A stretch of 64,000 bases of DNA, from the IMG/VR virus record IMGVR_UViG_3300013936_000020; one strand, written 5' to 3'. Below are positions 4,650 through 23,080 of the stretch, piece after piece. The stretch comes from an uncultured virus (IMG/VR IMGVR_UViG_3300013936_000020) (taxonomy: Duplodnaviria; Heunggongvirae; Uroviricota; Caudoviricetes). The notes under the pieces are model-generated. The model was not told where the DNA came from. It saw only the letters and a list, made by a program, of their open reading frames with translations, and ran no database searches. Position 1 is the first letter of the stretch, and every line of letters begins with the position of its first letter. Both the position numbers and the translations under genes were made by a program.

Positions 4650-4729
4650 ATCCTTTGACTTAACCGTGATGTCGAGGGCTTGGTTAATACTGTCGGGAGC
4701 CGAAGCTCCCTGGTTTTGGCTAATCGGGG

Positions 4730-5161
4730 CTATTGCTTGCCGCCGGGGATCACCTCGAAGACACGATGCTCCAGGTCCGAAGACAGTCGATTGCCGAACT
4801 CGTCAGAGACTTTTCCGTCTTCGTTTACGAAATACTTCTGTTCGTTCATTACCTTTGTGGCGATACCGAGACATTCGAGGCAATCCTTCGCTACAAATAT
4901 AACGTTCGTTCCTTCTCTCTCGGCGTTCTCGAAGTGCTCTATGAATCCTCCGTCAAGATCATCGACGAAATCATCTGTATAATCGCTCATCTCGTCTCCG
5001 TAGCGTCGATTGAGGGATTTCAGCTCTTCAATCATTTGCTTGTTCGTTCCGATTTCACCGAGCATTGGCTTTTGGAGAAGCTCGACAAACAGCTTTTCGT
5101 ACTTCTCCTTACACTCATCCGCCCATTCCTTGAGCGTTTCTTCTTCTACTCCTTCTAACAT
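4730..5161 (-). CDS. Acidic hypothetical protein
   Basis: 143-aa D/E-rich ORF in the operon direction. Confidence 0.7.
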   Translation of the reverse strand: MLEGVEEETLKEWADECKEKYEKLFVELLQKPMLGEIGTNKQMIEELKSLNRRYGDEMSDYTDDFVDDLDGGFIEHFENAEREGTNVIFVAKDCLECLGIATKVMNEQKYFVNEDGKVSDEFGNRLSSDLEHRVFEVIPGGKQ

Positions 5162-5173
5162 ATTATCTATATT

Positions 5174-5482
5174 TTATTGGTTAATATTTCCAATCAAAAG
5201 GTCTATGAGCTTCGTAAGTGAGTCGTAAGGTTGGAAAGGAACGCTTCTTCTTTCAAGCTCTCTCTTGATGCTCTCGATCGCATTGCTCACTTGTCTTTCC
5301 AATCTTTCGGACTTACGCTCTGCTTGCTCCTGCTCTACCAATGCACGGAACGTATCCTCTACATTGCATATTCCGGAGAGCTTGTCAACACGACGCTTTA
5401 GCGACATGTTCTCTTTTATCAGCTCTCCTTTTGTCATCTCTTTAAGGTGCGCTTTGTAGGCTATAGCCTCTTCCTTTTTCAT
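5174..5482 (-). CDS. Coiled-coil hypothetical protein
   Basis: 102-aa ORF with a typical ATTATG start context. Confidence 0.65.
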   Translation of the reverse strand: MKKEEAIAYKAHLKEMTKGELIKENMSLKRRVDKLSGICNVEDTFRALVEQEQAERKSERLERQVSNAIESIKRELERRSVPFQPYDSLTKLIDLLIGNINQ

Positions 5483-5543
5483 AATTCTCCAATTTTAGTT
5501 AATAATAGAAGAGGATGAGATTAGTCATCCTCCCTTTGGCTTC

Positions 5544-6548
5544 CTACCCAAGGTAGTCCGGGTCATAGATTCCGAAGAGGCGCAGCGTGTCGCTGTTTAT
5601 CTCCGTCTTGCCAACGATGTAGCGTTGGGTCATCTGGATATTGGGCTTGCCAGAGCTGATATGTCCCATCATAATGGCTATCTGCTCCAACGAGGCACCC
5701 TTCTTCGACAGGTTCGTGGCGAACGAGCGTCTGCCGGTGTGTGACGTGACAAAACGATACTTCATGCCTGTCTGCTCCTTCCCTCCCATGAATACCTTGG
5801 TGTACGTGTTGATGCCGCAGTCACAGCAGATGTCACGAAGGTTCTCGTTGAAGCACTTCTCGCTGATGGTTGCAGGAAGAGGCTCGTCGCCTGTGCCGCA
5901 CACGAGGAACGGGCGCAGCTTCTTGTGAAGAGGAACCTTGACCTCCACCTTCGTCTTCTGTGTGACGTACACCAAGAAATGCCCGGTCTCGTCGATGTTC
6001 TCGGTGGTCATCCTCTCGCAGTCGCTCCTGCGAGCACCGCAGAGGCATTCCATGATGAACATTCTCTGAACGTACCTCTTGATTGCTCCACGAGGGCAGT
6101 ACTTGATGATGCGGTCTATCTCCTCGTCGGTGAGGTAAACAGCCTGCACAGGCACTTGCTTTGCCCTGAGCACCTTGTGGAACTGCTGCGAAGGTATTAC
6201 CCTCGTTGCGTCGTTCTCACGTATCACAGCCTTGATGGTAGCGCACAGGGTCTTAGCAGAGTTCGGGGCATAGTTGTTCGTTATCTCCTCGAACAGGTCT
6301 CTGAGGTTGTCGTCGGTGACGTCTGACCACTGAGGCTTATGCCCGAGCATCTTCGCGAACATGCGGACCACCTTCAGGTACTTAGGATATTTCCAGATGT
6401 ACGCTCCGTAGAACGTCTCGTGTCTCCACTCTATCCCGTGGTAGTCGCAGAACCAACCCTGCTTGATGGGAGTCTTGTACTTCTGCTGCTGTGTGTAGGT
6501 TAGAAGTTGCTCCCAGTCTCTTGTCTTTAATCTGATTTCTTCTGTCAT
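5544..6548 (-). CDS. Tyrosine recombinase / integrase family protein
   Basis: Catalytic set CGARRSD, QKT, HTGRRSFAT, MMGH and TQRY. Confidence 0.92.
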   Translation of the reverse strand: MTEEIRLKTRDWEQLLTYTQQQKYKTPIKQGWFCDYHGIEWRHETFYGAYIWKYPKYLKVVRMFAKMLGHKPQWSDVTDDNLRDLFEEITNNYAPNSAKTLCATIKAVIRENDATRVIPSQQFHKVLRAKQVPVQAVYLTDEEIDRIIKYCPRGAIKRYVQRMFIMECLCGARRSDCERMTTENIDETGHFLVYVTQKTKVEVKVPLHKKLRPFLVCGTGDEPLPATISEKCFNENLRDICCDCGINTYTKVFMGGKEQTGMKYRFVTSHTGRRSFATNLSKKGASLEQIAIMMGHISSGKPNIQMTQRYIVGKTEINSDTLRLFGIYDPDYLG

Positions 6549-6576
6549 AATTCTTTATTTCTTTGGTTATTAGTGG

Positions 6577-6584
6577 CAAAGATA
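6577..6584 (-). promoter_or_regulatory. Bacteroidetes -7 promoter element (TATCTTTG) upstream of the recombinase
   Basis: Matches TAnnTTTG on the minus strand and sits inside a GGCAAAG...CTTTGCC inverted repeat. Confidence 0.55.
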
Positions 6585-6632
6585 CAAAGTTTGTCATATA
6601 AACTTTCGCCCTTTGCCGATTTTAACTTGGAT

Positions 6633-7019
6633 TTAACTCTGTCGTGCTGTCTCGAGCAGAATGTACCAGTCGAGGATGCCCAAATCCTGCAAGCAATAGC
6701 CAAGCGACAAGGCCTCGTCCCTGAACTTCTCGACCCTATTCAGGAGCGTCATGTCGTAGTCGTAGAACTCGAACAATCTCTTTGCAACGACGAACTTCCA
6801 GTCGTCATCGAGGTAACCCTGCTTGACGCCGTTGAACTCCTTTCCTCCATCAATGGCATCGTACGCTTCCTCCCACACATTGTCGATGGCCTCCAAGAGT
6901 TCCTTGTCTGTCTTCGTGTAGTCGATGTCCGTGTCCGTGATATTTAGGAGAATCTTTCCTGTCTCGTCAACCAAGTGCCACTCGTAGTAGCCTGCTTCCA
7001 ATCTTACTTTCTTATCCAT
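6633..7019 (-). CDS. Acidic hypothetical protein
   Basis: 128-aa ORF with the conserved leader. Confidence 0.7.
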   Translation of the reverse strand: MDKKVRLEAGYYEWHLVDETGKILLNITDTDIDYTKTDKELLEAIDNVWEEAYDAIDGGKEFNGVKQGYLDDDWKFVVAKRLFEFYDYDMTLLNRVEKFRDEALSLGYCLQDLGILDWYILLETARQS

Positions 7020-7075
7020 AATCTTAATGTTTTGGTTTGTGTAAACCGCTACAAGACGTAACGGTTTTGTTTGGC

Positions 7076-7654
7076 TTAGTCTTGTCTTCCAATGTCGAGC
7101 CCTGCGAGCACGCCCTCCATAAAGGCCAACGCCTCTCCTCTCTTTTCGGTGAGAAATTTTTGGTAGCCATCAATGATTACGCCGTACTTTTCGTTCGGAT
7201 AGTCTTGGAGGTAGCACTGATGATAGTCCTTTCCTGCTTTCTCCTCGATTTCACCTGCGAGACGCTTGCCTTCATCGGATTCCTTTGGTCTGCCATCGGG
7301 ATATTCCTCGTAGAAATACTCATGCCAAAGCTCCAATAGCATATCCTTGCAGCCCTCCATGTCTTGCAGCAAGTCCGACAGCTTGTATGGAGCACCGTTG
7401 GTACCATGTCCGTCCTCGCCAATCCACTTGGCCGCTTCCTCATCTGGGTCAAAGTCGTCGTAGTAATTATACAACTGTTCCATGAAATCGGACTTATCGT
7501 CATTGTCGAACCAGATAGTTGCGATAAAATCCTGGCCTTGTGGAGAATATTTCTCCAGCTCAACGCAAACCTTCCCATCACTACGAGCTTCGTAAACATT
7601 GCAACTCCAGCCCAAATTCTCTGCTAATTTCAAAAATTCATTCATAATCTTCAT
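7076..7654 (-). CDS. Acidic hypothetical protein
   Basis: 192-aa ORF flanked by the intergenic modules. Confidence 0.75.
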   Translation of the reverse strand: MKIMNEFLKLAENLGWSCNVYEARSDGKVCVELEKYSPQGQDFIATIWFDNDDKSDFMEQLYNYYDDFDPDEEAAKWIGEDGHGTNGAPYKLSDLLQDMEGCKDMLLELWHEYFYEEYPDGRPKESDEGKRLAGEIEEKAGKDYHQCYLQDYPNEKYGVIIDGYQKFLTEKRGEALAFMEGVLAGLDIGRQD

Positions 7655-7712
7655 AATTTATTGGTTAGACATAGGAGCGTGAAACAAAATGTTCCACGCC
7701 TTGTTTTGGGTG

Positions 7713-8150
7713 TTACACCGGCAGAGACACGATGTATTCCTTTCTCTTCTTTCGTGTTCTGCTCTTGACAGTGAAGCCGCAGAAGTCTCTCAGCCATCCA
7801 GCTGCATTGCCTGCGAAAGGCTCGTTGACAAAAAGGATTGGACGCACCATGCCGTTCTTCAACATCATCTGATAGTCGATGAAGTCGAAAGGGTCGTCGG
7901 GGTCGTCGGCCTTGCGCTCCCATATCGTCTCGTCGAGATAGTCGATGAAGTCTCCCTCTGGAGGGTTCTCCATCTCTATGAAACGCTTTGGAACGATGAG
8001 GATTGTGCTCTTCGCCTCGTGGGTCATAAAGAAATTCTCCACGACCTCGTTGAACGCACTCATATCCATCTCCTTTTGTTCGATTCCCTTCTTCTTCAGG
8101 ATGTCGGCGGCTGAGATCATCTTAGTCGCTCTTCTTGCTGTTCTTGCCAT
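7713..8150 (-). CDS. Hypothetical protein
   Basis: 145-aa ORF with the conserved leader. Confidence 0.75.
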   Translation of the reverse strand: MARTARRATKMISAADILKKKGIEQKEMDMSAFNEVVENFFMTHEAKSTILIVPKRFIEMENPPEGDFIDYLDETIWERKADDPDDPFDFIDYQMMLKNGMVRPILFVNEPFAGNAAGWLRDFCGFTVKSRTRKKRKEYIVSLPV

Positions 8151-8208
8151 AATTCACTTTATTTTTATTGGTTAGACATAGAACACAGGGAGAAATCTCC
8201 CCATGCTT

Positions 8209-8652
8209 TTAGACTTCAATCTTCCATATGTCGGAGCGCTTCTTGCCAATGCTCTTGACGAACGACAACGCCGTCTCAAAGTCAGGCTGCTGCACGTATT
8301 CCATGCCATGGAGGACGAAGAAGAAGCACTCTGTAGGGGCATGGTCTGCCTTGTTCTTCTTCTGAGATTTCGCTCTCTCGTAGAGCATCTTCTCCACTAT
8401 GCGGTTCTGATGGGCAAGCCCACGCTCATCGAGTTCTTTCTTAGTGAAGGAACGGACTAATTTCATTCTACAGCAGGCTGCGATATTGTCGAGCCACTGA
8501 TTTCTGTTGCTTTCGGTGATAGACAGGTCGTTCAGATGAGTCTTCCCTCCGAACGAGAACGTCGTTCCGAAAACAGTAACGGTAATCTTTCCATCAACTA
8601 TTGGAGCGTTCTTTACGGCCTCCAACAATGCCGTTGTCTCTGCTTTTGTCAT
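8209..8652 (-). CDS. Hypothetical protein
   Basis: 147-aa ORF with the conserved leader. Confidence 0.7.
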   Translation of the reverse strand: MTKAETTALLEAVKNAPIVDGKITVTVFGTTFSFGGKTHLNDLSITESNRNQWLDNIAACCRMKLVRSFTKKELDERGLAHQNRIVEKMLYERAKSQKKNKADHAPTECFFFVLHGMEYVQQPDFETALSFVKSIGKKRSDIWKIEV

Positions 8653-8782
8653 ATTCTTTTAATTTTAATGGTTGAACTTGTGGTAAAAAGAGAGGCGTGT
8701 CTCACGACAGACCTCCTCTCACCATTTAAACAAATCGAGTTATGTGTAGGAGCCTGTATGTCGGTACAGGCTTGTTTGGCTG

Positions 8783-9199
8783 TTACCTTGGTACGTTCCA
8801 GTGGAACTTAATGCTGACAAAGTCGTCAACGGCATCGAATGTAAGCACGTGAACGCCGTCGGAATCACACGCTTTGTCATCTATGAACTGTATGTGAAAG
8901 GTGAAGCCCAAGCACCACAGTTCATCGTAGGCTACATCAGTAAGTCTCTCAATTATCGTTCCTCTCCATGCGCATCTATCGTCTGCGGATTTTGGCAGCT
9001 TTAAAAAACGCATTTCGACAACATTGTCACGATATGACATAAACGTAGGGAATCCGCTGACGAATCCAAGGTACTCGTTCTTGTTGAACGTGTATTCCTC
9101 GTTGTCAAACAAGGCGTCTGTCAGCCAATCGCTCATAACGTTCTTGTCGTCGATAGGAGCTTTCATTAATTTTCTTGTGTCAATGTTAATCTCTTTCAT
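8783..9199 (-). CDS. Hypothetical protein, paralog of 9266-9673
   Basis: Shared blocks: MKEINID/MKRINID, GFVSGFPTF/GFVDNNPTF, AWRGTIIERLTD/AWKRKVIDALTD. Confidence 0.7.
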   Translation of the reverse strand: MKEINIDTRKLMKAPIDDKNVMSDWLTDALFDNEEYTFNKNEYLGFVSGFPTFMSYRDNVVEMRFLKLPKSADDRCAWRGTIIERLTDVAYDELWCLGFTFHIQFIDDKACDSDGVHVLTFDAVDDFVSIKFHWNVPR

Positions 9200-9265
9200 A
9201 ATCTTTCATTTTAATTGGTTAAGATAGAATGGAGGTCACCCGGAATCGTGACCCCCAATATTAAG

Positions 9266-9673
9266 CTAAACTAACTTTTCGTCATACACTCGAAATACAA
9301 TGCGCAAGGATCTATTCTGCACAACAAAACTGTAAACTATACCCGTCTCATCGTCAAGAATATTAACGTATTTGTCGTCGATGTTGTCAATGTAACAGTC
9401 CGTCAAAGCGTCTATTACCTTTCTTTTCCACGCATCAATGGTTTTTTTCTTACTCTGTAGGTACGGGGAAACAAAAAACACGTCTATGATATTGCTGCCG
9501 ATGCTCGCAAATGTAGGGTTGTTGTCTACAAATCCAATAGTTTCGTCGAACTTCTGTAGATAGACGATATTGAACAGATCGTCGAGCAAACTTTCTGAAC
9601 TTGGCGCATTTTTTCCGATAACAGCATCCTTCATCATTGCGAGTTTCTCAATGTCAATGTTTATTCTCTTCAT
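9266..9673 (-). CDS. Hypothetical protein, paralog of 8783-9199
   Basis: Same shared blocks as the neighbouring gene. Confidence 0.7.
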   Translation of the reverse strand: MKRINIDIEKLAMMKDAVIGKNAPSSESLLDDLFNIVYLQKFDETIGFVDNNPTFASIGSNIIDVFFVSPYLQSKKKTIDAWKRKVIDALTDCYIDNIDDKYVNILDDETGIVYSFVVQNRSLRIVFRVYDEKLV

Positions 9674-9734
9674 AATTCTTAATTTTTAATTGGTTGTACA
9701 TTGTACCCTCCAAACAAGGAGGGCTTTTGGCTGA

Positions 9735-9868
9735 CATGGCTCTCGGCTCGTGCCTCTCTTTAGACCTTCGATGTAGAGAGCTTTATCAGAAGGATCGGAG
9801 CCGGCTAACCTTGCCGGACGATGATCCTTCTTGAAGAAGCCCTTCTGAATTGATGCCGAGCGACCATG
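9735..9868 (-). ncRNA. Orphan RT-associated structured unit U0
   Basis: Closing stems CATGG/CCATG and CTCGGC/GCCGAG; inner hairpin AGAAGGATC/GATCCTTCT plus CCGGC/GCCGG; minus-strand motif ATCGA-AGGTC-TA-AAGAGAG-GCA. Confidence 0.75.
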
Positions 9869-9898: not shown

Positions 9899-10960
9899 TT
9901 ACTTCTTCCACTCGTCAATCTTTCCCTGGATCGAGATGCCTGACTCGCTTATGAGTTCCTTCAAGATACCGAGCATTCTCCAGCCCTCGTTGTGGTCAAC
10001 GCAATCCTTCGCCAGAATGTCGAGATGCTTCAAGGACTGAGCCTGTGATGAGTATCTGCCTCCGATACGGAAACGGACACCGTGGAACATGATGAGGTTT
10101 CTCATCGTGAAGTAAGAACCAGAGCCCTTGTAGGCGTTGATGAAGTCGCTTGACTGCTTGGTGTTCCAAGAAAGATGCTTGCGCACCTTGTTGAATTTCT
10201 TCAATGTCTTGTAAAGCACATCGTAGGAAGGAGTGTTTCCCATCAAGTGAGCCATCTCTATGAGTGGGTAATAAACTTTATTCTGCAAATCAACGACAAA
10301 GATGTTCTTGTTATTGATGCGTACGTAAGGAAGTCCGTGGCAAGTGTGCTTGTAGTGCTCCTTGTCAATGCAACCTGTCTTCTTGTCCACGCGATAGATG
10401 AGTTCGTCCTCGACGTACTTCTTGAGCTTTTCAATGTAGTCCACTGCCATGAAGTATGCTGTCTCGCCATTGAACCACATGTTGCGCATGTTGGCGTTGT
10501 CGTAGTCTCCATGCTTTTGCATTTTCATCTGGGCATAGATTTCGTTCTCAAGCATTCTCCACTGATACTCGTAGCCACTACACTGCAATGTCTCGTTGAA
10601 AGACTCGCCTGACGTCTCCATGTATCTCAATATGTGGAACATCTGGCTCATCACCCAACGGCGGAACAGCTTCCAGTTGTTCACGTAACCGCCCTCCACG
10701 AGCTTCTTCTCCACAACGTCGTCCTCGTCTGGTGCAATCTGCACGAAATCAACAGGGACAGCCTTGCCGTCCTTGATTTCAACGACCTGCTCGTCTCCGA
10801 GCGTGAAGTACTTGCTCATGTCGTAGCCCAACGCTCTCAACGTGTCCATACGCTTCTCCGCCTTGGTCTTCTTCTGAGCGGGTGCCTCCTTTGCGGATGC
10901 CTCTACGTTCTTAACTACTACGTTCAAGTTCTCACCAGTGATTGTTGCAATCTGTTTCAT
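9899..10960 (-). CDS. Hypothetical protein (353 aa), candidate partner of the RT/ncRNA system
   Basis: Long clean ORF between the six-unit array and the orphan unit. Confidence 0.8.
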   Translation of the reverse strand: MKQIATITGENLNVVVKNVEASAKEAPAQKKTKAEKRMDTLRALGYDMSKYFTLGDEQVVEIKDGKAVPVDFVQIAPDEDDVVEKKLVEGGYVNNWKLFRRWVMSQMFHILRYMETSGESFNETLQCSGYEYQWRMLENEIYAQMKMQKHGDYDNANMRNMWFNGETAYFMAVDYIEKLKKYVEDELIYRVDKKTGCIDKEHYKHTCHGLPYVRINNKNIFVVDLQNKVYYPLIEMAHLMGNTPSYDVLYKTLKKFNKVRKHLSWNTKQSSDFINAYKGSGSYFTMRNLIMFHGVRFRIGGRYSSQAQSLKHLDILAKDCVDHNEGWRMLGILKELISESGISIQGKIDEWKK

Positions 10961-11017
10961 ATTCTTTAAAATTTTAAATGGTTGATAATTAATTTATTTA
11001 ACTCTTGTGGATGAGGC

Positions 11018-11461
11018 TTATGCCCCACCCTTGTTTGGCTCAATCCAGTCTCTGAGGATGATGAGGTCCTTGTCCTTATCAGACTGCCAGAACCACGTTC
11101 CCCACTCGTCGTGCCATGTAAGCTGTCCTTGATAAAGACAAAGCAGGACGTATAACTCTAATCTGCATCTTGCCACCTCTCGTCTATCGCCGTACATCAT
11201 GTCGCTATCAGATAGGTCCTTCTCGCGTAAGGCTTTAAAGTAGTATCTACGATGTGATTCAGAACGCTCTGATGGAATTGAGTGTTTGTATATCTTGTAC
11301 AGATGCTCGATTCTTTCCATCATCGGTTTGTTTCTGATAGGTGGGAAAAAGGTGTCAGACAAATCAATTACTTTTCCGTTAAGTCTCATTGTTCTCTTCT
11401 GGAAGTTGATGGTGAACTTCGCACCATCCTCTACCGCCTTGATAATCTCGTCGTATGTCAT
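11018..11461 (-). CDS. Hypothetical protein (147 aa), candidate partner of the RT/ncRNA system
   Basis: ORF with the conserved leader and a Trp-rich C-terminus. Confidence 0.75.
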   Translation of the reverse strand: MTYDEIIKAVEDGAKFTINFQKRTMRLNGKVIDLSDTFFPPIRNKPMMERIEHLYKIYKHSIPSERSESHRRYYFKALREKDLSDSDMMYGDRREVARCRLELYVLLCLYQGQLTWHDEWGTWFWQSDKDKDLIILRDWIEPNKGGA

Positions 11462-11492
11462 ATTCTTAATGATTTGGTTAATAGGGATAGTG

Positions 11493-11735
11493 CTACGGAA
11501 GCACTATCTTTTCGGTCTCGTTAAGGCAGTTGACAAGGGTCTTCTCATCAGTCCCAAGTGATGTGTAGAACTTGTCTCCGTTCGCCCACATCTGCATTAT
11601 CATATAGACTTCGTGAGCGTCTTCAATCGTCAACCTTCCGCATGGAACTGTCGCAAGCAAGTCACCCATTGACAAATCATCTTTGCCGTATAGTTTGGTG
11701 ATGGCTACAAGTTTCTTCTCAATTTCTTTCTTCAT
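11493..11735 (-). CDS. Hypothetical protein
   Basis: 80-aa ORF directly downstream of the array. Confidence 0.65.
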   Translation of the reverse strand: MKKEIEKKLVAITKLYGKDDLSMGDLLATVPCGRLTIEDAHEVYMIMQMWANGDKFYTSLGTDEKTLVNCLNETEKIVLP

Positions 11736-11760
11736 AATTCCTAAAATTTGGTTAATAGTT

Positions 11761-14319: not shown

Positions 14320-14510
14320 AATTCTACTTTTTGGTTATTGTGCGCAGTCCTTAGCTGCGCTTTTTTTGGCTTTTCTTTTTTTGCCAGTTATTGAACCATT
14401 TTTGAAGACGTAAGTCAGCTTCGTGCTGCCTCTTGTAAAACTCATCTGAGCAAACCCATGCTACGAGCTTATCAGCTAACTCTGCTTGATTTTCCATATA
14501 GCTCACTTTT

Positions 14511-14804: not shown

Positions 14805-14835
14805 ACTCTTAATATTTTGGTTATAGTAAGGGAGA

Positions 14836-15039
14836 TTACTCTCCCTTTGTTTTTGGCTTGTATGCCTCTTGCTTTAGGTCAACCACATCTCCTGCCATAT
14901 AGAAGCAGTCGGACTCTCTAAGGTCAAGACCTTCCTCTGAGTAGAGATATTTTTCAATATCTTCCTCGTCCCACTCGTCTGGGCATCCCCAGATAATGCG
15001 CACCTCGGAGGTGGCGTAGTTCATAATTGCTATTTGCAT
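14836..15039 (-). CDS. Small acidic hypothetical protein
   Basis: Start re-assigned to MQIAIM from the leader motif. Confidence 0.6.
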   Translation of the reverse strand: MQIAIMNYATSEVRIIWGCPDEWDEEDIEKYLYSEEGLDLRESDCFYMAGDVVDLKQEAYKPKTKGE

Positions 15040-15089
15040 ATTCTTTACTTTTTTGGTTAATAATGGGCGCAGGGATTGCTCCCTGCTTT

Positions 15090-15668: not shown

Positions 15669-15721
15669 AATCTTATCTGTTTAATGGTTTGTTGCGATAG
15701 CCAGAAGGCTATCTTTTAGGC

Positions 15722-15904
15722 TCAATCTCTGAGATGATACTTCCATCTCAACGCTTTCGTCAGAGAGTTCACAACCTTGAAAGGAAGACTATAGAACCAC
15801 TGCCCCATGTTGTGGAGCTGAATGGCGTACTCCTTGTCGATTCTCTGGAAGCCACGCTCGCCGCTTGCGCTGACGGTGTAGCAGAAATACTTGTTATCTT
15901 TCAT
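15722..15904 (-). CDS. Hypothetical protein
   Basis: Start re-assigned to MKDNKY from the leader motif. Confidence 0.55.
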   Translation of the reverse strand: MKDNKYFCYTVSASGERGFQRIDKEYAIQLHNMGQWFYSLPFKVVNSLTKALRWKYHLRD

Positions 15905-15951
15905 AATTCTTGCTTGTTGGTTTGTTGTAGGTAGCCAATCGGCTACCATTC

Positions 15952-16290
15952 TTAGGCTCTGTACCATGCTTCCCATGCCGCATCCGTGTTCTTGGTGATT
16001 GCATTGTTCCATAATCTCTCCTGTTTGCGGAAAATCTTCTGAAAAGATTTCGAGGTTGTATTTACATCAACTCTCTTGCCAAGATAAGGTCTTCCGTGAC
16101 CTGGAGTAATCTCATCATACTCACAGGTACATCTTACCATTCCGCTATCTGTGGGCTTGCAACCTATGTAGCAGCCGTACACTCCAGGGTATTTCTTTCT
16201 CATCCACTTAGGGTAAGGGAAGTATATACTCCAAGCATCAATGTAGTCACGAAATTCCTTTCTCGTGTCGTGATAAAGTCTTGCTTTCAT
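15952..16290 (-). CDS. Hypothetical protein
   Basis: Start re-assigned to MKARLY; ends in GCCTAA. Confidence 0.65.
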   Translation of the reverse strand: MKARLYHDTRKEFRDYIDAWSIYFPYPKWMRKKYPGVYGCYIGCKPTDSGMVRCTCEYDEITPGHGRPYLGKRVDVNTTSKSFQKIFRKQERLWNNAITKNTDAAWEAWYRA

Positions 16291-16340
16291 AATTCTTTTG
16301 TTATTGGTGAATAGAAAGGGAGCGTGCAAGCTCCCTCTAA

Positions 16341-17159
16341 TTAGGCTACATCCTTTCTTTGGATGCCGTTCTCTTTTAAGGCTTCCTCGATTAGCTCGTC
16401 TGCGTCATCGTAGTAATAGCCCCAGCAGGATTCAACCTCCTCCCAGTCGTAGCCATCCTCTGGCTCACGACCGATTTCAGTGAAGGCCTTCTTGTAAGGC
16501 GCTTTCTTCTCCAAGACGAATCCTTTTACGTCGCCCCACATCCAAAGACCGATGTCCTTGACCTCGCCCTCGAATATCGCCAAGGCTCGCTTTCTCCAGT
16601 TCTTCGTGTTTGTGTCACAATACTTGGAGAAACGCTCCTTGTCGCAATAAGCGTAACCGCTAACGTAGTCTCCTTGACAATAGCCTGTCGTAGACCACTC
16701 ATAGAAAGCTAAGTCTCTGCAATCCTGTAGGAGATATACGAAATCGTCCTCTTCGAGCACATCGCAAAGTTCCTCTCTGTAGTCGAAGTTCTTCAAGTCG
16801 CTTGGAGCAAACTCTTCGTGCCAGTACCAATCCTTGTCGTAGTAATTCTCAAGATACCACATGCGGTCACTCTTATCGTAGCGCATACGGTAATTATCAA
16901 CGCTGTCGCTGTTGATGTAGTCGATAATCTTCTTCTGCGACACGTACTTGCAGACAAGCTCTTTCAATACTTCCTCGGCATTCTTCGCGTCGGTTCTGTT
17001 GCAACATCGAGAGATACCTCTGTTGTATCTGTACTCGATGCAGTCCCAGAAGTAAACTCCAAGCAAATCCCAATCCTGGCAAGGACAATCTGCGTCATCG
17101 TCCTGGTAGATGGAGATTCTGTAATCTCCAATCTCCTCTCGTTTGAATAGATAACTCAT
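16341..17159 (-). CDS. Acidic/aromatic hypothetical protein (272 aa)
   Basis: Long ORF with GYCQGDY and ESCWGYY segments; ends in GCCTAA. Confidence 0.8.
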   Translation of the reverse strand: MSYLFKREEIGDYRISIYQDDDADCPCQDWDLLGVYFWDCIEYRYNRGISRCCNRTDAKNAEEVLKELVCKYVSQKKIIDYINSDSVDNYRMRYDKSDRMWYLENYYDKDWYWHEEFAPSDLKNFDYREELCDVLEEDDFVYLLQDCRDLAFYEWSTTGYCQGDYVSGYAYCDKERFSKYCDTNTKNWRKRALAIFEGEVKDIGLWMWGDVKGFVLEKKAPYKKAFTEIGREPEDGYDWEEVESCWGYYYDDADELIEEALKENGIQRKDVA

Positions 17160-17214
17160 AATCTCGTAATTTTAAATGGTTGAACATAGGTCTCCACAAT
17201 TACGTGGAGATTTC

Positions 17215-17442
17215 TTAGGCTATATACGAGTCGAACACCTCCTTTGCCTCACGATACGTCTTGCGCTCGTGCTCTTCCATCTTTCCGCTACGCATGTCGT
17301 TAACGTAAACGCTGAATGTGTTGTCTGCCCAACGAACGATGTCGATTCTTGACTCACTATTTTCCTTTGTGTCCACAATCTCGCACTTCAACAAATCGTC
17401 GTTGAAGATTTCCTCCAAATCTTTCTTAGTATTCTCATTCAT
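17215..17442 (-). CDS. Hypothetical protein
   Basis: 75 aa, flanked by the modules. Confidence 0.65.
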   Translation of the reverse strand: MNENTKKDLEEIFNDDLLKCEIVDTKENSESRIDIVRWADNTFSVYVNDMRSGKMEEHERKTYREAKEVFDSYIA

Positions 17443-17493
17443 ATCTCATATTTTATTGGTTAATACTTGAACTCCCCATGCAAGGGGAGATTT

Positions 17494-17994
17494 TTAGGCT
17501 GTAGGAGCGAACTCCTCCTCTCTTTCGAGGTCATAGCTCAGATCTTGAAGCTCGTTCGAGAAATTGTACTTGATTCCGAACGTGCCGAATGCGTAGAAAT
17601 ACCACGACGATAGATATTCTCTGTCGTCGTTGGCTCTCTCGCTGTCCTCGGCTGCATCAAGACGCTTCACCATCTCAGGGAACAGGTCGAAATAATCATT
17701 CTCTATGTCAGCAAAGTTGCCATCCATTCTGTGAGAATCCATGTGGAGATACTTCTTCATGTCTCTGTTGACCTCGTGAGCGAACTCCCAAGCGAGGTTG
17801 TGTATGTGATTCTCGTCGTCGTACAGGTCGTTGATGTACTGCTCAAGCTCCTCTTTGTTGTCGAAATTATCCAGGCACTCTCTGTAAAGCTCCTCGATGG
17901 ACTTCGCAAACTCCTCGATGCCGATGTAGTCAGCCACCTTTTCGATGACCTCTCCCTTGTTGTTGCTAACAACTTCCACAATGCTCTTTTCCAT
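17494..17994 (-). CDS. Highly acidic hypothetical protein
   Basis: 166 aa, very D/E-rich. Confidence 0.75.
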   Translation of the reverse strand: MEKSIVEVVSNNKGEVIEKVADYIGIEEFAKSIEELYRECLDNFDNKEELEQYINDLYDDENHIHNLAWEFAHEVNRDMKKYLHMDSHRMDGNFADIENDYFDLFPEMVKRLDAAEDSERANDDREYLSSWYFYAFGTFGIKYNFSNELQDLSYDLEREEEFAPTA

Positions 17995-18058
17995 AATTCA
18001 CTTGTTTAAATGGTTGATAATGGAAATCCCCACCCGTGAGGATGAGGATTGGTTTTGG

Positions 18059-18289
18059 CTATCCGAACACCAGGAGATTGATGATAGTCCACAATTTGTA
18101 TGGGTTCAATTCCATATCAAAAAGGTTTCTTACTACGCTCTGCTTTGCGTCCTTGCAGAGTTCTCTGTAATCGTCAAGCATCTCGCCTGGGTGTCCACAC
18201 TCGTAGTGGTAGAGCATGACGTCAGTGAGAAAATTCTCACAATCGTAATACTTGCACTGCTGCTCAAGGGTCTTTCCTCTTCTTGCCAT
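18059..18289 (-). CDS. Hypothetical protein
   Basis: 76 aa, flanked by the modules. Confidence 0.65.
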   Translation of the reverse strand: MARRGKTLEQQCKYYDCENFLTDVMLYHYECGHPGEMLDDYRELCKDAKQSVVRNLFDMELNPYKLWTIINLLVFG

Positions 18290-18354
18290 AATTCACAAAT
18301 TTAAAGGGTTAAACAATGGAAGGCACGCCCATCCCTGAGCGCACCTTGTTAGGC

Positions 18355-18666
18355 TTAAATCTTCCACTTCGTAGGGTCAAGCAAATCTGAGTCTCTTGAA
18401 GCGTGCTTGTAATGGTGTACTATTCTCTTGTCGTCCATTCTTATATCTGTACCAAGAGACTCGTTTATTCCTTGGCACGCCCACATCAAGCAATCTCGCT
18501 CTGAACTACTTCCTGCCATCATATCCATGTGAATGGTGATGTAGCGGAAGTAGCTGACGTGACTCACTCCTATTTTCGCAATCCATGCAAAATAAGGGTT
18601 GCCATACACGTCTCGATTCTTTCCACGAGACCAAATCTCGATTTTTGTAATGTTCTCTTCTTTCAT
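18355..18666 (-). CDS. Hypothetical protein
   Basis: 103 aa with an RDVYGNPYF segment. Confidence 0.65.
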   Translation of the reverse strand: MKEENITKIEIWSRGKNRDVYGNPYFAWIAKIGVSHVSYFRYITIHMDMMAGSSSERDCLMWACQGINESLGTDIRMDDKRIVHHYKHASRDSDLLDPTKWKI

Positions 18667-18723
18667 ATCTATAAAATTTTGGTTTGTGGCACCTACGCAT
18701 CTCTGCGTAGGATTTTTTTTGGC

Positions 18724-19125
18724 TTACATGTACTTCGTGGTGTCAACACCAAGTCTGTGAGCGAGCTGGAAGACCTTGCAGGAAATGCTCATAAACCAGT
18801 TCTCCGCGAAATTATCCGCTTTCTTTTCTGTCTGGCAATATCCCCAAGACTTACCAATCTGCTTGATGTTGTACGGATTGAACTCGATGCAAAATACAGA
18901 AGGTAGCCCCTTAGTCCACTCGCAGAAACGTTCTACCACGCTCTTGTATAACTGCTTGTTGTAAGGATAATTCGCCTCCTTGTTGAATTGCTCCAACAAT
19001 ACGATCATCTTCTCGCTGTCGCTCATTCCGTCTGAGTCAATATCGACGTTCTCGGGAACGATTGCGTCAAGGATATATGCGTACTGTTTTCCGTTCACCT
19101 TGTAGTCTCTTACGTTCTTCTTCAT
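18724..19125 (-). CDS. Hypothetical protein
   Basis: 133 aa, flanked by the modules. Confidence 0.7.
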   Translation of the reverse strand: MKKNVRDYKVNGKQYAYILDAIVPENVDIDSDGMSDSEKMIVLLEQFNKEANYPYNKQLYKSVVERFCEWTKGLPSVFCIEFNPYNIKQIGKSWGYCQTEKKADNFAENWFMSISCKVFQLAHRLGVDTTKYM

Positions 19126-19190
19126 AATTCTAATGTTTTAAGGGTTTGACATAGTTTCTGTGCAGATATACCGCACAGAATAATTTTGGC

Positions 19191-19367
19191 TCAAAACCTG
19201 CGAGGCTTACAGAAATCACGCTCAATCTCACGTGCAACCTTGTCCGCACGGCTCGCTCTTCTAAAGTAAGCCTTGTCGTCCAATTTCTTCGCCTTGCAAT
19301 CCTCGTCGATTACTCTCTTGTGCGCCTGTACCAAGCGCATGAGGAACTTTCTGTCTCCGTCTGTCAT
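19191..19367 (-). CDS. Small basic hypothetical protein (58 aa)
   Basis: Manual translation MTDGDRKFLMRLVQAHK...KPRRF*, lying exactly between two modules. Confidence 0.6.
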   Translation of the reverse strand: MTDGDRKFLMRLVQAHKRVIDEDCKAKKLDDKAYFRRASRADKVAREIERDFCKPRRF

Positions 19368-19431
19368 AATTCTGAATTTTGATGGTTAATAATTGTAATG
19401 TAGCCCTACAGAAGGGCTACACCTTGTTAGG

Positions 19432-19980
19432 CTAAAACTTGTACTCTTTCTTCTTGCGTGTGTAATTATCCACGTAGAACACCTTCACTGCACCATATTC
19501 TTTGCGGAGCTCGTTGGCATTGTATGCTACTCGTTCCATGTTTCCACAAATAACCGAGTTATGCTCTGCTCCATCCTTATCAACGAATGATACGGAATAT
19601 CCGCTCCATAGGAAATTATCCAGGTTCTTTCGGACAAACTCGTCAAACCTATAGCCTACGTTAGCTGCCATCTCGTGCATCTTCACGTAATACTCCTTTG
19701 TCGTGCCAAGCGTCTTGGCTGTAAGAAGGCAGATTTTCTCTCTGCCTTGATACTCGATGTAGAAATCCGTGTAGATTCCCTCGTTCGAGCCAAAGGTGGT
19801 GATGGAAAACGAGTCGAAAGCCTCGCTCACAATCTCTGTCTCGTTTAAATCCCATGCAGAGTAATAATCGAGACACGCTTTGCTCGCCCAATTTTCCTCC
19901 TCGATGTATCTTTCAATGATTTTTCCAAGCTCTATCGAGGTGTAAGGCCTGTCGATACCGGCAATCTTTTCTTTCTTCAT
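19432..19980 (-). CDS. Hypothetical protein
   Basis: 182 aa with an FGSNEGIYTDF segment. Confidence 0.75.
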   Translation of the reverse strand: MKKEKIAGIDRPYTSIELGKIIERYIEEENWASKACLDYYSAWDLNETEIVSEAFDSFSITTFGSNEGIYTDFYIEYQGREKICLLTAKTLGTTKEYYVKMHEMAANVGYRFDEFVRKNLDNFLWSGYSVSFVDKDGAEHNSVICGNMERVAYNANELRKEYGAVKVFYVDNYTRKKKEYKF

Positions 19981-20041
19981 AAATCTATTCTGTTTTGGTT
20001 AATAGCAGGCAGCACGAATTATCGTACTGCCCAGATTCGGC

Positions 20042-20260
20042 TCATTGGTTGTGCGACCATTTCCACAGACGGTCAACGTAGTCAGGACCACACAGATACT
20101 TGTCCGTGTCTCCTCCGTCGTCGATGTCGTTCATAAGCCTGCGCACGTCCTCCTTCAACTGAGCCTTGTCATCCTCCGCTCTCTGTGCGTACACTCCACA
20201 ACCTACAAGGAGCAAGGCTATCGCCAACGCTCCAAGGAACTCACAAATGTCTCTTCTCAT
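20042..20260 (-). CDS. Small membrane-anchored or secreted protein
   Basis: N-terminal hydrophobic helix ending LVGC. Confidence 0.6.
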   Translation of the reverse strand: MRRDICEFLGALAIALLLVGCGVYAQRAEDDKAQLKEDVRRLMNDIDDGGDTDKYLCGPDYVDRLWKWSHNQ

Positions 20261-20314
20261 AATTCTGAATGCTTTGGTTAATAATGAGGAGAGGGAGAAA
20301 CATCTCCCTCTGAT

Positions 20315-20551
20315 TTAGGCTGACTCCCACACGACTTTCTTGTCAGAGTCTCGTCTTAGCTGGAATACGAGATGGATTTTCTTGTTCTCGTCTGCTGTCT
20401 GCTGCAATAATACTTTTGCCCTTGCTAACTTGCAAATGTCGTACTCTGAGTAAACTGAGGCGTAGATGATGTTTGTCACAGGAACTCCCTGAGACAAATC
20501 GAAGGCATGAAAATTATTCGTGCCATCCCATTTTGCGTAAACTATAAACAT
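20315..20551 (-). CDS. Hypothetical protein
   Basis: Start re-assigned to MFIVYA; ends in GCCTAA. Confidence 0.6.
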   Translation of the reverse strand: MFIVYAKWDGTNNFHAFDLSQGVPVTNIIYASVYSEYDICKLARAKVLLQQTADENKKIHLVFQLRRDSDKKVVWESA

Positions 20552-20602
20552 ATTCTTGAAATTTTGGTTTATAGAAGTGCCTGGCAATCGCCAAGCACAA
20601 AT

Positions 20603-20890
20603 TTAGGCTAAGAACTTCTTGATGTACTCAACAACCTTGTCATACAACTCGTCGAGCTTATCGGGACGTAGTGTGTAGAAAAACGAGAATTGCTCACAAT
20701 ACAAGTCATTTGTCTCCTTGCTTCCCGTGTACACGCACACGCTCACGTATCCCCCTTTTTCGATGTATATCTCGAAAGAGAATTTTCCGTTGGCAAACGT
20801 GTCTCTCTGAATCTCATGCAACTTAGGCAAGATGTTCGTGCGCAAATACTCTCTGTACGTCTCCCACTCAGGGTAATCTAATTTCTTCAT
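20603..20890 (-). CDS. Hypothetical protein
   Basis: Start re-assigned to MKKLDY; ends in GCCTAA. Confidence 0.6.
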   Translation of the reverse strand: MKKLDYPEWETYREYLRTNILPKLHEIQRDTFANGKFSFEIYIEKGGYVSVCVYTGSKETNDLYCEQFSFFYTLRPDKLDELYDKVVEYIKKFLA

Positions 20891-20953
20891 AATTCTGTGA
20901 TTTTTTTTGTTTGACATAGTATGCGTGGGAAAACGCCCACGCACGTTTTTGGC

Positions 20954-21259
20954 TTACAGTAAGTCAAGGCAGATGATTATTATCCAACCCTCTCCGTTGT
21001 CAAGCAGAGCGATGTTCTCGTCTGTCAGCTTGGAATTAATCCATTTGTCAACGTTAGGAAAATCAGAGAAGTCAGACTCATCGAACCAAACGGCACAATA
21101 TGCGCCTGGTTTCAACGTGTCAACGCCGTCGGCTCCGTAGTGTCTGCTGACATCCACATCTCTGACGAATACGTCGATGCTATAGTTGCTGTTGTACACT
21201 CCGTCCTTGTTGAGGACATCCATGAGGTCTATGACCTGCGCTTTACTAATTGCTTTCAT
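20954..21259 (-). CDS. Acidic hypothetical protein
   Basis: 101 aa, flanked by the modules. Confidence 0.65.
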   Translation of the reverse strand: MKAISKAQVIDLMDVLNKDGVYNSNYSIDVFVRDVDVSRHYGADGVDTLKPGAYCAVWFDESDFSDFPNVDKWINSKLTDENIALLDNGEGWIIIICLDLL

Positions 21260-21330
21260 AATCTAATTCTGTTTAAATGGTGAATAATAGAATCCGCTCG
21301 AATATCTCCAAGCGGAAATTTTAGGCTCAC

Positions 21331-21540
21331 TTAGTCCTCGTATTCCTCAATCTTTGCGTCGAAGTTGTCAACGAAAACGCCTATGACGAACATCCCTATC
21401 ATCTCCAGAATCACAGCATAGCCTATAGCTTGAACATCTCCAAGCACATAGCCAACGCCTCCGATAGCTGATGCGATTACTGACAACACGATTGACTGAA
21501 CGAATGCGAGCACGCTCTTCTCTAACTTAATCTTTTCCAT
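21331..21540 (-). CDS. Small membrane protein (2 TM)
   Basis: Hydrophobic 69-aa ORF. Confidence 0.6.
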   Translation of the reverse strand: MEKIKLEKSVLAFVQSIVLSVIASAIGGVGYVLGDVQAIGYAVILEMIGMFVIGVFVDNFDAKIEEYED

Positions 21541-21644
21541 AATTCTATTTGTTTAAAGGGTTGTTAATTATCGTACTGCCCACAGTAAGCAGGCAGATTT
21601 TAGGCTAAAATTCTCCAAGCACAATTATCGTACTTGCCAACTCC

Positions 21645-21878
21645 TCAGAGCGTGGGGAAGATGAAATTCTCCAAGCGCAGCGTGGAACGCCACAGCTCTT
21701 TGAAGAACCACCTCCCAATTATCGTACTGCTCCAGAATATACCAAGCGCAACCGCCCAAAATATTCCAAGCACAATTACGAGAATATTCGTACTTGCCAA
21801 GCACACGAAAGCTGGCACGCTCTGAAAAAATCCAAGCACAATTATTGCGCTTGCGTAAATAATCTGTCTCTGTCTCAT
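21645..21878 (-). CDS. Small membrane protein overlapping a repeat cluster
   Basis: Start MRQRQI; hydrophobic, with internally repeated IVLG/STII words. Confidence 0.5.
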   Translation of the reverse strand: MRQRQIIYASAIIVLGFFQSVPAFVCLASTNILVIVLGIFWAVALGIFWSSTIIGRWFFKELWRSTLRLENFIFPTL

Positions 21879-21947
21879 AATTCTAAATTTTAATAGTGAT
21901 TGTCGCTCCGTAGCCAAGCACGATAATTATCGTACTGGCTACAGAAT

Positions 21948-22082
21948 TTAGGCTAAAACAGCCACAACGAGTTTCTTTCCGCCGTAGCTCATGTACTCCA
22001 CGTGGGCGTATATCGTCTGCAAATCGGCGATGTACAACTCCATCATTCTCCTCCCTCTGCAATCTAATGTTATCGTACTCAT
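21948..22082 (-). CDS. Small hypothetical protein (44 aa)
   Basis: Manual translation MSTITLDCRG...VAVLA*, ending in GCCTAA. Confidence 0.5.
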   Translation of the reverse strand: MSTITLDCRGRRMMELYIADLQTIYAHVEYMSYGGKKLVVAVLA

Positions 22083-22136
22083 AATTCTAAATGTTTAATG
22101 GTTGTTATTTGTACCCTATCAAGTGATAGGGAATCT

Positions 22137-22334
22137 TTAGGCTGATTTCAGATAATTGTGAATATATTCTGCCTCTTCTACCGTGAGACCGATACCGAGA
22201 ACGAGTATCCCGACGTAATCATTATAAAACCTATCGCTTGCGAAATCCTCGCAATATGTACGGAAATTCTTCTCAGCCTCAGCAGCCGAAACGTTTCTAT
22301 TCTCTGAAATCTTCTTGATGATATTCTCTTTCAT
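22137..22334 (-). CDS. Hypothetical protein
   Basis: 65 aa, ends in GCCTAA. Confidence 0.6.
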   Translation of the reverse strand: MKENIIKKISENRNVSAAEAEKNFRTYCEDFASDRFYNDYVGILVLGIGLTVEEAEYIHNYLKSA

Positions 22335-22399
22335 AATTCTATTAATTTAAATGGTGAATAAATTGTAGGACTGAGATTTCTCTCAGCCCCGTTAGCCAG

Positions 22400-23080
22400 G
22401 ACGTGCATCTTGGCACCACGTTTTATCTTTATTGTTCTCACTACGTGGCTCACGCCCTACAGTTATTGTGGAACTGCATCCAGAGTGTTTGTTTCTGAGT
22501 GATTTCTCAACACTGAAAACACACAACAGATTTCAGTCAGCGTGGATAGTGTGCGCCTTGGTACGCTGCAAACCGTGGTTGCACACACCGTGATTTCTAC
22601 AGTAACCAACTGCCACGCTCACGACACGTGATAGAATATGAATTATGATTTTCTCTCATCCCCGGCGAGCAAGTTTCCACTCGCTCTATCGGAACACGTC
22701 CGATACCGGTGACAGGTGTTCTCCACCTGCAATCGTCACACCGTTCCCGGTGTTAGTGTGGCTACGATTTCTTGCCTAACACGTGCCTCGTATCTTTCGG
22801 TATCGTGCGGCTCCACACTTTCTCGTTTCTCTCGTATGGATGTCTCCGTGAAATCTCGTTTCACTCTCCCATATCGGTGTGCTTCTCACACTCTCGATTT
22901 GCTGAGAAACTCTCTTGAATTTTGGCAATTAGTCCCCTGAGGGAGAATGAATTCTCTCTCTGAGTAAGCCCACACACCGCGACAAGGTTTACCAAAACGT
23001 GTGGGAAAAGTAAGGGTACGACGACCCGCACCTAATCTCTTGACCAGGTGTAAAATGAGGGTGGATTTCTCCACCCTTAT
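22400..23080. ncRNA. Candidate large structured ncRNA (~700 nt)
   Basis: No credible ORF; a dense series of hairpins at 22687-22705, 22709-22739, 22750-22782, 22939-22960, 22969-23005 and 23058-23077. Confidence 0.5.

Follow-up and report, generated by a model that had tools for sequence, protein, structure and literature searches.

A recurring stop-hairpin-leader module at sites of single-gene exchange in the early gene array of a temperate Segatella copri siphophage

In this study, we analyzed a 64,000-nt stretch of the uncultured virus record IMGVR_UViG_3300013936_000020 (hereafter, the window), in particular a leftward array of early genes separated by a recurring intergenic module. On the sense (minus) strand, the module consists of AGCCWAA, a variable hairpin of 6–13 bp, a spacer of pyrimidines and A, a ATTAACCAA box, and an A-rich leader that ends in (GA)ATTATG. 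Relatives of this phage gain, lose, and replace single genes at the module, with breakpoints inside it, and in this evolutionary sense the cassette-like array proposed in a preliminary description of this DNA was borne out. We propose that the module is a linker without a promoter of its own, serving both expression and exchange within a polycistronic early operon, a hyperplastic region of small orphan genes; we give this reading slightly better than even odds (a probability of roughly 0.55). The linker would resemble the PeSL motifs of T4-type phages, which are described as composite intergenic signals whose conserved parts double as crossover points (PMC2839356, PMC4122927).

Thirty-six minus-strand open reading frames (ORFs) were counted from 22334 to 4730, where about 25 early genes had been described. 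AGCCWAA occurs 37 times in the window compared with 15.9 ± 4.4 times in shuffled sequences, none of 100 shuffles reaching 37; 31 of the 37 copies are on the minus strand, and 27 minus-strand copies lie within 4400–22500. The stop codon is fused to the motif in 17 of the 36 genes, as GCC-TAA (Ala-stop, nine genes), as TAA or TGA followed by GCC (six), or as TAG overlapping AGCC (two), and in four more genes the motif lies 4–11 nt 3′ of the stop. The exact motif is absent at the remaining 15 ends. The Ala-stop and stop-then-GCC endings are thus genuine, and the statement that nearly every gene end carries AGCCWAA was too broad. The fusions cluster in 15000–22400. In the relatives compared below, the fused arrangement is found at 567 of 1089 junctions (72 arrays), and 567 of the 581 exact copies of AGCCWAA are in one of three stop-fused registers. 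Where present, AGCCWAA is locked to the gene end.

A hairpin with a z score of −3.1 or lower against shuffled sequences precedes 31 of the 35 gene starts examined, and an AACC-type box lies 17–23 nt 5′ of the ATG at 32 of the 35 by script and at two further starts by eye, confirming the hairpin-plus-leader unit; the five hairpins quoted in the preliminary description are all present. GAATTATG has 19 copies on the minus strand of the array and two on the entire plus strand. The anatomy was written out for 30 modules, and a MAFFT consensus of 29 reads nnAGCCTAAAA ... CnATTnnTAACCAnTAAAAnnnnAAAATTATG; the stems are out of register in this alignment, and the counts given here rest on scripts. Spacings in the relatives are narrow: mostly 7–10 nt from GCC to the stem, 5–11 nt from the stem to the box, and 17–22 nt from the box to the ATG, with stems of 5–13 bp (mostly 7–10). 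The ATTAACCAA box holds 1.2–2 bits per position in a logo anchored on CC. In at least four modules, a stop codon lies inside the hairpin. The array proteins are largely orphans, 33 of 35 being without a Pfam family above the cut-off. At least 170 stretches in viral contigs match the module pattern; among the matches listed, contigs with several hits resemble this phage family and single hits resemble chance. Three modules share one hairpin family (..AGTACGATAATT..GTGCTTGG..), within 21565–21954 and 20016–20045, and this family appears three more times within the coding sequence of the 77-aa gene 21878–21645.

The exchange of cassettes was followed in relatives. A primase search yielded 237 relatives, and the analysis started from the best 80 loci. 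After removal of nine truncated loci, the 71 with a full 10 kb upstream of the primase gene were compared together with the window (72 arrays). In most relatives, the comparison covers the first 10 kb of the array. With our own ORF calls and single-linkage clustering, 1581 ORFs were grouped into 152 families, and the 72 arrays have 68 distinct gene orders. A single family reaches 90% or more of the loci, 47 occur in 10–90%, and 104 in fewer than 10%, including 53 singletons. The relative order of the families is almost constant: 12,360 of 12,369 pair observations agree (99.93% colinear), and the other nine are in the minor order.

Homology blocks were defined by at least 93% identity over at least 150 bp, and ends within 60 nt of an array end were dropped. 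Of the unique block ends, 1022 of 1992 downstream ends and 1000 of 1766 upstream starts fall within −70 to +19 of a module ATG, and the interval −75 to +19 accounts for 14.7% of the sequence. Block ends are therefore found in modules at 3.5–4 times the expectation, although end counts are not counts of independent events because many exchange events are shared by descent. The ends form two zones: the leader, where left blocks run to +0 to +19 and right blocks start at −30 to −21, and AGCCWAA (−70 to −41). Breakpoints in AGCCWAA, which the preliminary description had proposed to look for in relatives, occur as one of two zones within the module, and most breakpoints are in the leader. In all 18 clean single-cassette indels, defined by flanks at least 96% identical, the junction lies inside a module or at its ATG and spans 8–63 nt of shared sequence; 11 junctions are in the leader, one is at ATGAAGAA (ATG), two are at AGCCTAAA(A), two are in the AGCC/hairpin part, and two comprise whole modules. 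Compared with L306, the closest relative of the window among the loci compared (98% identity in the recombinase), the window has the gene 11735–11493 as an extra cassette with its crossover within CTATTAACCAAAT, and the gene 4649–4455 as another with its crossover within a different repeat (motif 2, described below), GCCCTCGACATCACGG. Forty-four hairpin classes were seen three or more times. Of these, 20 adjoin several different genes on each side; nine have one upstream gene only, two have one downstream gene only, and 13 have one of each. Such varied junction lengths and positions, on both sides of the hairpin and with colinear gene order, are predicted for homologous or micro-homologous exchange and not for a single-site system.

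Several cassette insertions in relatives lie directly 5′ of the array's reverse transcriptase gene. This second reverse transcriptase (421 aa) is inside the array behind a normal module (window 11760–14030, minus strand), and its best match is a group II intron reverse transcriptase with 97 bits (cut-off 300). It is followed by approximately 1 kb of G+C-rich structured non-coding sequence with a minimum free energy of −372.8 kcal/mol; an Rfam search of 11600–12900 gave nothing at E ≤ 1. The reverse transcriptase and the structured non-coding unit are conserved in L306 and in the prophage of S. copri HDD04.

The hairpin is the part of the module that varies. The 1089 junctions in relatives contain 241 distinct hairpin sequences of 91 unrelated classes, all in one fixed place. 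With one representative per class and both transition mismatches scored neutrally, G·T mismatches in the stem outnumber A·C mismatches by 44 to 22 (p = 0.009); in 531 non-independent spacers, the counts are 425 and 94. GNRA and UNCG tetraloops number 35 compared with 11 antisense equivalents, and whole-spacer folds are more stable in the sense direction in 56 classes and in the antisense direction in 34 (p = 0.026). Of 276 stem pairs in 30 orthologous groups, 206 are invariant and 28 have some unpaired cells, and 42 vary yet remain paired, 29 through one-sided changes and 13 through double changes. Hairpin-energy asymmetries (27 v 5 and 69 v 10) were not used; they are biased because the hairpin finder permitted G-T pairs on the sense strand only. 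The mismatch and tetraloop counts lean to sense RNA, and a fold of the sense-strand DNA is also compatible with the sequence alone. We regard these data as moderate evidence that the hairpin is selected as a sense-RNA structure.

Across the first 9 nt 3′ of the stem, T content is 24–53% (220 unique junctions), and with a threshold of 5 or more T in 8, seven modules are terminator-like in the sense direction. The hairpin and U-tract of an intrinsic terminator are therefore not combined in most modules, and the preliminary description, in which the sense U-tract is lacking, was mostly right. Its further view that the hairpins act at the RNA level and are not ordinary terminators fits the weak U-tract, the stable tetraloops, and the G·U asymmetry between strands, the last being only moderate. 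The phage uses canonical hairpin-plus-T-run terminators after the first early gene, and terminator-like sites number 45 compared with 15.3 ± 4.2 expected. The long stem of a T7-type RNase III site, approximately two helical turns, is not found among stems of 5–13 bp. In the early transcript, the hairpin would most likely have a protective or attenuating role.

Segatella (Prevotella) copri is the host of this temperate siphophage. The complete chromosome of S. copri HDD04 holds a prophage with a 78%-identical primase, at whose end a lysogeny-type integrase adjoins host genes, and related contigs were binned with Prevotella/Segatella. Since the host is thus a member of the Bacteroidota, promoters were read as TTTG ... 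TAnnTTTG and start regions without a Shine-Dalgarno sequence. A TAnnTTTG motif stands just 5′ of one array gene only, that of the tyrosine recombinase (TAtcTTTG at 6584); the preliminary description of this gene at 5544–6548 as a tyrosine recombinase with its own promoter was correct (Pfam Phage_integrase, 1.4e-14). Candidate promoters lie upstream of the array, at approximately 23688–24092. The array is therefore most simply one transcription unit, presumably a long polycistronic early one, and its other genes seem to depend on read-through. The promoter motif at 23681–23720 (Table 1) is the likeliest source of its transcription. At 6584 in the window and at approximately 5400 in the distant relative L327, the host-type promoter takes the place of the hairpin just 5′ of the box, so that the leader begins with the box.

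In 241 unique junctions, the frequency of A in the leader is 60–73% at −14 to −11, 70% at −6, and 80% at −3, with −4 within 60–80%. A enrichment at −14 to −11 and positive determinants at −3, −6, −12, and −13 are reported for a member of the Bacteroidota by Baez et al. (2019, PMC6847099), and the leader from −14 to −1 fits this type of Shine-Dalgarno-less start region. The box is a different matter. The full module pattern has 11 matches in the 3.86-Mb host chromosome, all in the prophage array, and controls have none; the box-plus-ATG pattern has 12 matches in the prophage array and nine in the remaining 3.8 Mb, with seven for the control. Outside the prophage array, box-plus-ATG is thus no commoner in the host than chance predicts, and the ATTAACCAA box is a feature of the phage and not a host translation signal. 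Both the box and AGCCWAA are kept in a distant relative with a 44%-identical recombinase. Pairing of the box with host 16S rRNA was considered and rejected; the longest match, 6 nt, is the commonest value among 500 shuffled 11-mers. We also rejected an N4-like virion RNA polymerase using hairpin promoters, as the four large virion proteins have no DxDGD-type motif.

Two other non-coding elements border the array. The first early gene (minus strand) is followed by a canonical terminator-like hairpin and then by a 660-nt non-coding stretch before the array (22400–23100), with many GAAA-type loops, a fold z score of −3.4, and conservation of its first ~300 nt in relatives; an Rfam search of 22300–23150 gave only weak, chance-level rows. 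Past the array, motif 2, (TTCA)GCCCT(C/A)(G/C)(A/G)CATCACGG(T/A)(T/C)AAG, has five copies on the minus strand within 3077–4693, four of them approximately 10 nt 5′ of the start codons of post-array genes. It is also present in L327 at approximately 7600 and serves as the crossover of one cassette indel. Motif 2 may be a promoter for a later gene class.

We propose the following mechanism. In the sense RNA, the module would give all genes one expression context: a stable hairpin directly after the upstream stop, possibly protective or attenuating; the phage-specific ATTAACCAA box at the start of the 5′ leader; and an A-rich, Shine-Dalgarno-less start region of the Bacteroidota type (A at −14 to −11, −6, −4, and −3) that could serve as a ready-made start for an incoming gene. 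In the DNA, AGCCWAA(A) and above all the 10–35 nt leader would be crossover points flanking the variable hairpin, and homologous or micro-homologous recombination between co-resident relatives at these conserved stretches would delete, insert, duplicate, or replace single genes as cassettes, with the array order retained. Several observations weigh against this proposal. Approximately 40–45% of homology-block ends fall outside modules, and selection for intact genes would by itself place some breakpoints at gene borders. The hairpin leans to the sense strand only moderately (56 vs 34; 44 vs 22), and the terminator rule is passed by 10 modules in the antisense direction compared with seven in the sense direction, an A-run (64–72% A at −5 to −3) before the stem forming a short antisense U-tract. 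A role of the hairpin as an insulator of the start region was rejected as too weak, the unpaired probability being 0.629 in native and 0.612 in shuffled sequences (+0.017; higher in 19 of 30 modules). Retention of both boxes in the distant relative suggests specific recognition by a reader that the proposal does not name. Finally, PHROGs searches found no recombination protein (Erf, RecT, Sak, and the like) among 34 window proteins, the window being only part of the phage.

The hairpins could instead be weak bidirectional terminators or attenuators that silence the array in the lysogen. In lytic growth, polymerase would read through them once modified, either by the product of the first gene or at the structured 660-nt leader, in a manner resembling the lambda pL operon. 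This antitermination scheme, which is compatible with the recombination part of our proposal and which we consider unlikely, would account for the excess of terminator-like sites, the canonical terminator and conserved structured leader after the first gene, and the scarcity of promoter motifs within the array; the lambda int gene likewise has its own promoter inside an operon, as the array recombinase gene does. Against it, most modules fail the sense U-tract rule, a stop codon lies within some of the hairpins, Pfam, NCBIfam, and PHROGs give nothing for the 160-aa first gene and so no antiterminator family was recognized, and Rfam finds nothing credible in the 660-nt leader. Less likely still, the ATTAACCAA box and AGCCWAA might be binding sites for a phage-encoded factor. 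A stoperator-like repressor could halt elongation through each cassette in the lysogen; alternatively, an RNA-binding factor or nuclease could tag early messages, to be selectively translated or shut off at a set time. The phage specificity of the box, its single orientation, its conservation beside a 44%-identical recombinase, and its position directly behind the predicted start point where a promoter stands in for the hairpin are in keeping with such a factor, as is a similar phage-specific, start-linked repeat in cluster K mycobacteriophages whose reader is described as unknown (PMC3203893). The rather fixed box-to-ATG distance, mostly 17–22 nt, suits a role in translation better than a DNA roadblock, however; no candidate binding protein was identified, no box copy was seen by eye at the early promoters (23600–24570), and complementarity to 16S rRNA does not exceed chance. 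An improbable alternative involves ordinary features only, an antisense terminator (hairpin plus TTTTWGGCT) and a common translation leader, with boundaries that merely reflect illegitimate recombination followed by selection to keep genes intact. Phages in general have mosaic boundaries at gene borders, and the A-run before the stem and the 10 antisense modules agree with such a terminator. Yet the sense strand is favored by the G·T excess over A·C, the types of tetraloop, and the folding of whole spacers. It is also not obvious what purpose more than 30 antisense terminators would serve in a single operon; a U-tract would not account for AGCC, the host does not share the leader box, and the junctions lie exactly in shared stretches of 8–63 nt and not merely between genes. 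The preliminary description had kept this combination as its fallback; it explains too little, leaving aside the sense bias and the phage-specific box.

A further suggestion was that the hairpins are attC-like, structure-defined recombination sites, and an integron-like platform, in which the orphan tyrosine recombinase moves single-gene cassettes at AGCCWAA or at the folded hairpin, was examined. The 334-aa protein is a generic tyrosine recombinase; the integron integrase model NCBIfam TIGR02249 gives 28.6 bits over a 39-aa stretch compared with a cut-off of 265, and Xer models score far below their cut-offs. It is a second recombinase and not the lysogeny integrase, because the end of the HDD04 prophage carries a separate 389-aa integrase with a SAM-like N-terminal domain and host genes adjacent. 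Relatives of this integrase are at or near the ends of many family contigs (12 recognized by eye among the primase loci), and a 69%-identical form of it shares contigs with a 98%-identical array recombinase. The position of the array recombinase varies, lying only approximately 1.5 kb from the primase gene in one relative (L309) and not at the array head in the window, so the gene behaves as a cassette itself. The outer inverted repeats of attC are absent: the flanks are AGCCWAA upstream and ATTAACCAA downstream, which are not complementary, and G is at most 15% at each of 24 positions 3′ of the stem, leaving no GGCT partner for AGCC. A site that travels with its upstream ORF after a single crossover does not agree with the mixed hairpin classes (20 of 44) and the varied junctions, and entry at an attI-like site in unconserved order does not agree with colinear arrays lacking a single entry site. 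Most junctions are in the leader rather than AGCCWAA and lie on either side of the hairpin, and the G·U pairs and RNA-type tetraloops favor RNA over folded DNA. A role for the second recombinase has nevertheless not been assigned, AGCCWAA has the 7-nt size of a crossover core and is locked to gene ends, and two indels share only AGCCTAAA(A) at the junction. The attC/integron reading is not supported by these sequence comparisons, and a platform of this kind is very improbable. In a broader form, which is quite unlikely, the whole AGCCWAA-hairpin-ATTAACCAA unit might be recognized by a phage-encoded factor, either the orphan tyrosine recombinase of the array, giving phage-borne, integron-like gene capture at a new kind of site, or an RNA-level factor that reads the leader. 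With the latter, early messages would be selectively translated, protected, or later destroyed in a host without Shine-Dalgarno recognition.

Table 1. Positions of the array, its modules, and adjoining elements in the window.
Position	Feature	Strand
4680..22402	early-left array, 36 ORFs on one strand, ~32 hairpin modules	-
22332..22402	first module: GGCTAAC variant, hairpin, CACC leader, ATG 22334; without upstream gene	-
22080..22143	module	-
21876..21954	module; long hairpin, leader without ACC	-
21538..21608	module	-
21257..21328	module	-
20888..20956	module, box variant AAAC	-
20549..20610	module	-
20258..20323	module	-
19978..20045	module, AGCCGAA variant	-
19365..19435	module	-
19123..19192	module	-
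18664..18723	module	-
18287..18359	module	-
17992..18062	module	-
17440..17501	module	-
17157..17222	module	-
16288..16350	module	-
15902..15959	module	-
15666..15725	module	-
15037..15098	module	-
14802..14859	array feature	-
14317..14372	module	-
14028..14090	module 5′ of reverse transcriptase gene	-
11733..11760	leader only (CTATTAACCAAAT...ATG); cassette-indel crossover vs L306	-
11459..11520	module without AGCC; loop contains stop codon	-
10958..11042	module, long spacer	-
9671..9736	module	-
9197..9269	module, AGCTTAA variant	-
8650..8781	long module, two hairpins	-
8148..8219	module without AGCC	-
7643..7712	module without AGCC	-
7017..7079	module	-
6546..6600	host-type promoter motif (TTTG..TAtcTTTG) replacing hairpin, then TAACCAAAG leader of recombinase gene	-
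5544..6548	tyrosine recombinase, 334 aa; second recombinase, not lysogeny integrase	-
5480..5546	module, box variant AACT	-
5159..5186	leader only; overlaps end of upstream gene	-
4680..4721	terminal module: AGCCAAA, TTCG-loop hairpin, TATTAACCAA; abuts first motif 2 copy	-
22400..23060	structured non-coding leader between first early gene and array	-
23108..23590	first gene of leftward early unit, 160 aa, no family; then terminator-like hairpin and T-run	-
23681..23720	Bacteroidota-type promoter motif TTTG-N19-TAccTTTG	-

The remainder of the window is a siphophage-type genome with genes for a terminase (33435–35081), portal protein (31723–33453), capsid protein (36767–37957), 2710-aa tape measure protein (41470–49602), and D5-type primase (24578–26134), in addition to a PAPS-reductase-like gene and two reverse transcriptases. 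By terminase, the nearest named phages are LoVEphage-type temperate Bacteroides phages (58% identity over 96%). A megablast of the array against GenBank phages gave zero matches, the structural region matched only an unannotated 5-kb fragment, and none of 50,697 GenBank phage records is a complete record of this lineage at the DNA level. Neither a tRNA nor an Rfam match at the gathering score was found in the window, and literature searches gave nothing relevant on this phage group or its spacer. Between the primase gene and the leftward early genes, an AT-rich divergent region (23600–24570) has several TAnnTTTG motifs on both strands and the repeated words GTGGAACA/TGTTCCAC; it is probably a genetic switch or origin. 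A diversity-generating retroelement occupies 57649–62353. Its 109-nt repeats (60342–60450 and 60708–60816) are 82% identical, the former lying at the 3′ end of a 953-aa gene (57649–60510), and a reverse transcriptase gene (60971–62353) follows the repeat pair. Past the array, the HDD04 prophage (L091 693–2905) encodes a 195-aa protein with a sigma-70 region 4-like stretch and an RNA polymerase alpha C-terminal domain, after whose gene a DDE transposase is inserted; the window stops short of the equivalent place.

Few bacteria of the human gut are more abundant than Segatella copri, and almost nothing has been studied of its phages. The array is an unusually clean natural case of single-gene modular exchange, with crossovers mapped to a spacer of approximately 60 nt, and our proposal would carry the PeSL idea beyond lytic T4-type coliphages, to temperate phages of Bacteroidota and to modules without a promoter. 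The module might also find use as a portable linker for expressing multi-gene constructs in Bacteroidota, in which ribosome-binding sites are difficult to design, and the orphan early genes form a ready-sorted pool of candidate host-takeover or anti-defence functions.

We compared the array with known systems. By annotation, LoVEphage and related temperate Bacteroides/Phocaeicola phages share with the present phage two integrase genes, a PAPS-reductase-like gene, and a reverse transcriptase near the tail fibre. The module itself is absent from LoVEphage, where the motif counts are at background and without strand bias (first 50 kb of the 71.5-kb record). The two integrase genes of LoVEphage are adjacent and annotated together with RecT and an exonuclease (MW660583.1 17601–19610, L329), and a second tyrosine recombinase may be a trait common to the wider LoVEphage-type group. 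The T7 early operon is likewise a polycistronic early region read by host polymerase, and its intercistronic hairpins could leave stable 3′ ends, as might those of the array. RNase III substrates are approximately 20 bp or longer with internal loops, and the T7 early operon has five such sites; the array has more than 30 sites with stems of 5–13 bp, and the T7 sites are not recombination linkers. Integron arrays resemble the array in their one-directional, promoterless single-gene cassettes with structure-prone sites between them, a tyrosine recombinase gene nearby, and variable content, and they differ in the IntI score, attC pairing, single crossover, and attI entry.

The SAS and ESAS repeats of cluster K mycobacteriophages (Pope et al. 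2011, PMC3203893) are also phage-specific, of one orientation, and confined to the non-structural half of the genome. In the available part of that report, they lie at a fixed short distance before ATG starts, are absent from the host genome, have no known reader, and sometimes contain the upstream stop codon. SAS differs in having a Shine-Dalgarno core 3–7 bp from the start, and the inverted repeats of ESAS are conserved in sequence, with little support seen by the authors for an RNA hairpin; the same part of the report does not describe cassette exchange at SAS.

PeSL motifs, as portrayed by Arbiol et al. (2010, PMC2839356) and Comeau et al. (2014, PMC4122927), are closer in plan. They combine an upstream stop, a stem-loop with G-T pairs, a translation start signal, and a start codon; they are concentrated in hyperplastic regions beside orphan genes; and the ends of indels and replacements between relatives fall in the motif, which was read as homologous exchange between motifs. 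By the same accounts, PeSL has a strong host sigma-70 promoter and a stem-loop shown to terminate, whereas a promoter accompanies only one gene of the array described here. The start signal of the present module lacks a Shine-Dalgarno sequence, two short phage-specific boxes surround a fully variable hairpin, and the carrier is a temperate siphophage of a Bacteroidota host. From this comparison, the module is most likely the promoterless counterpart of the PeSL motifs.

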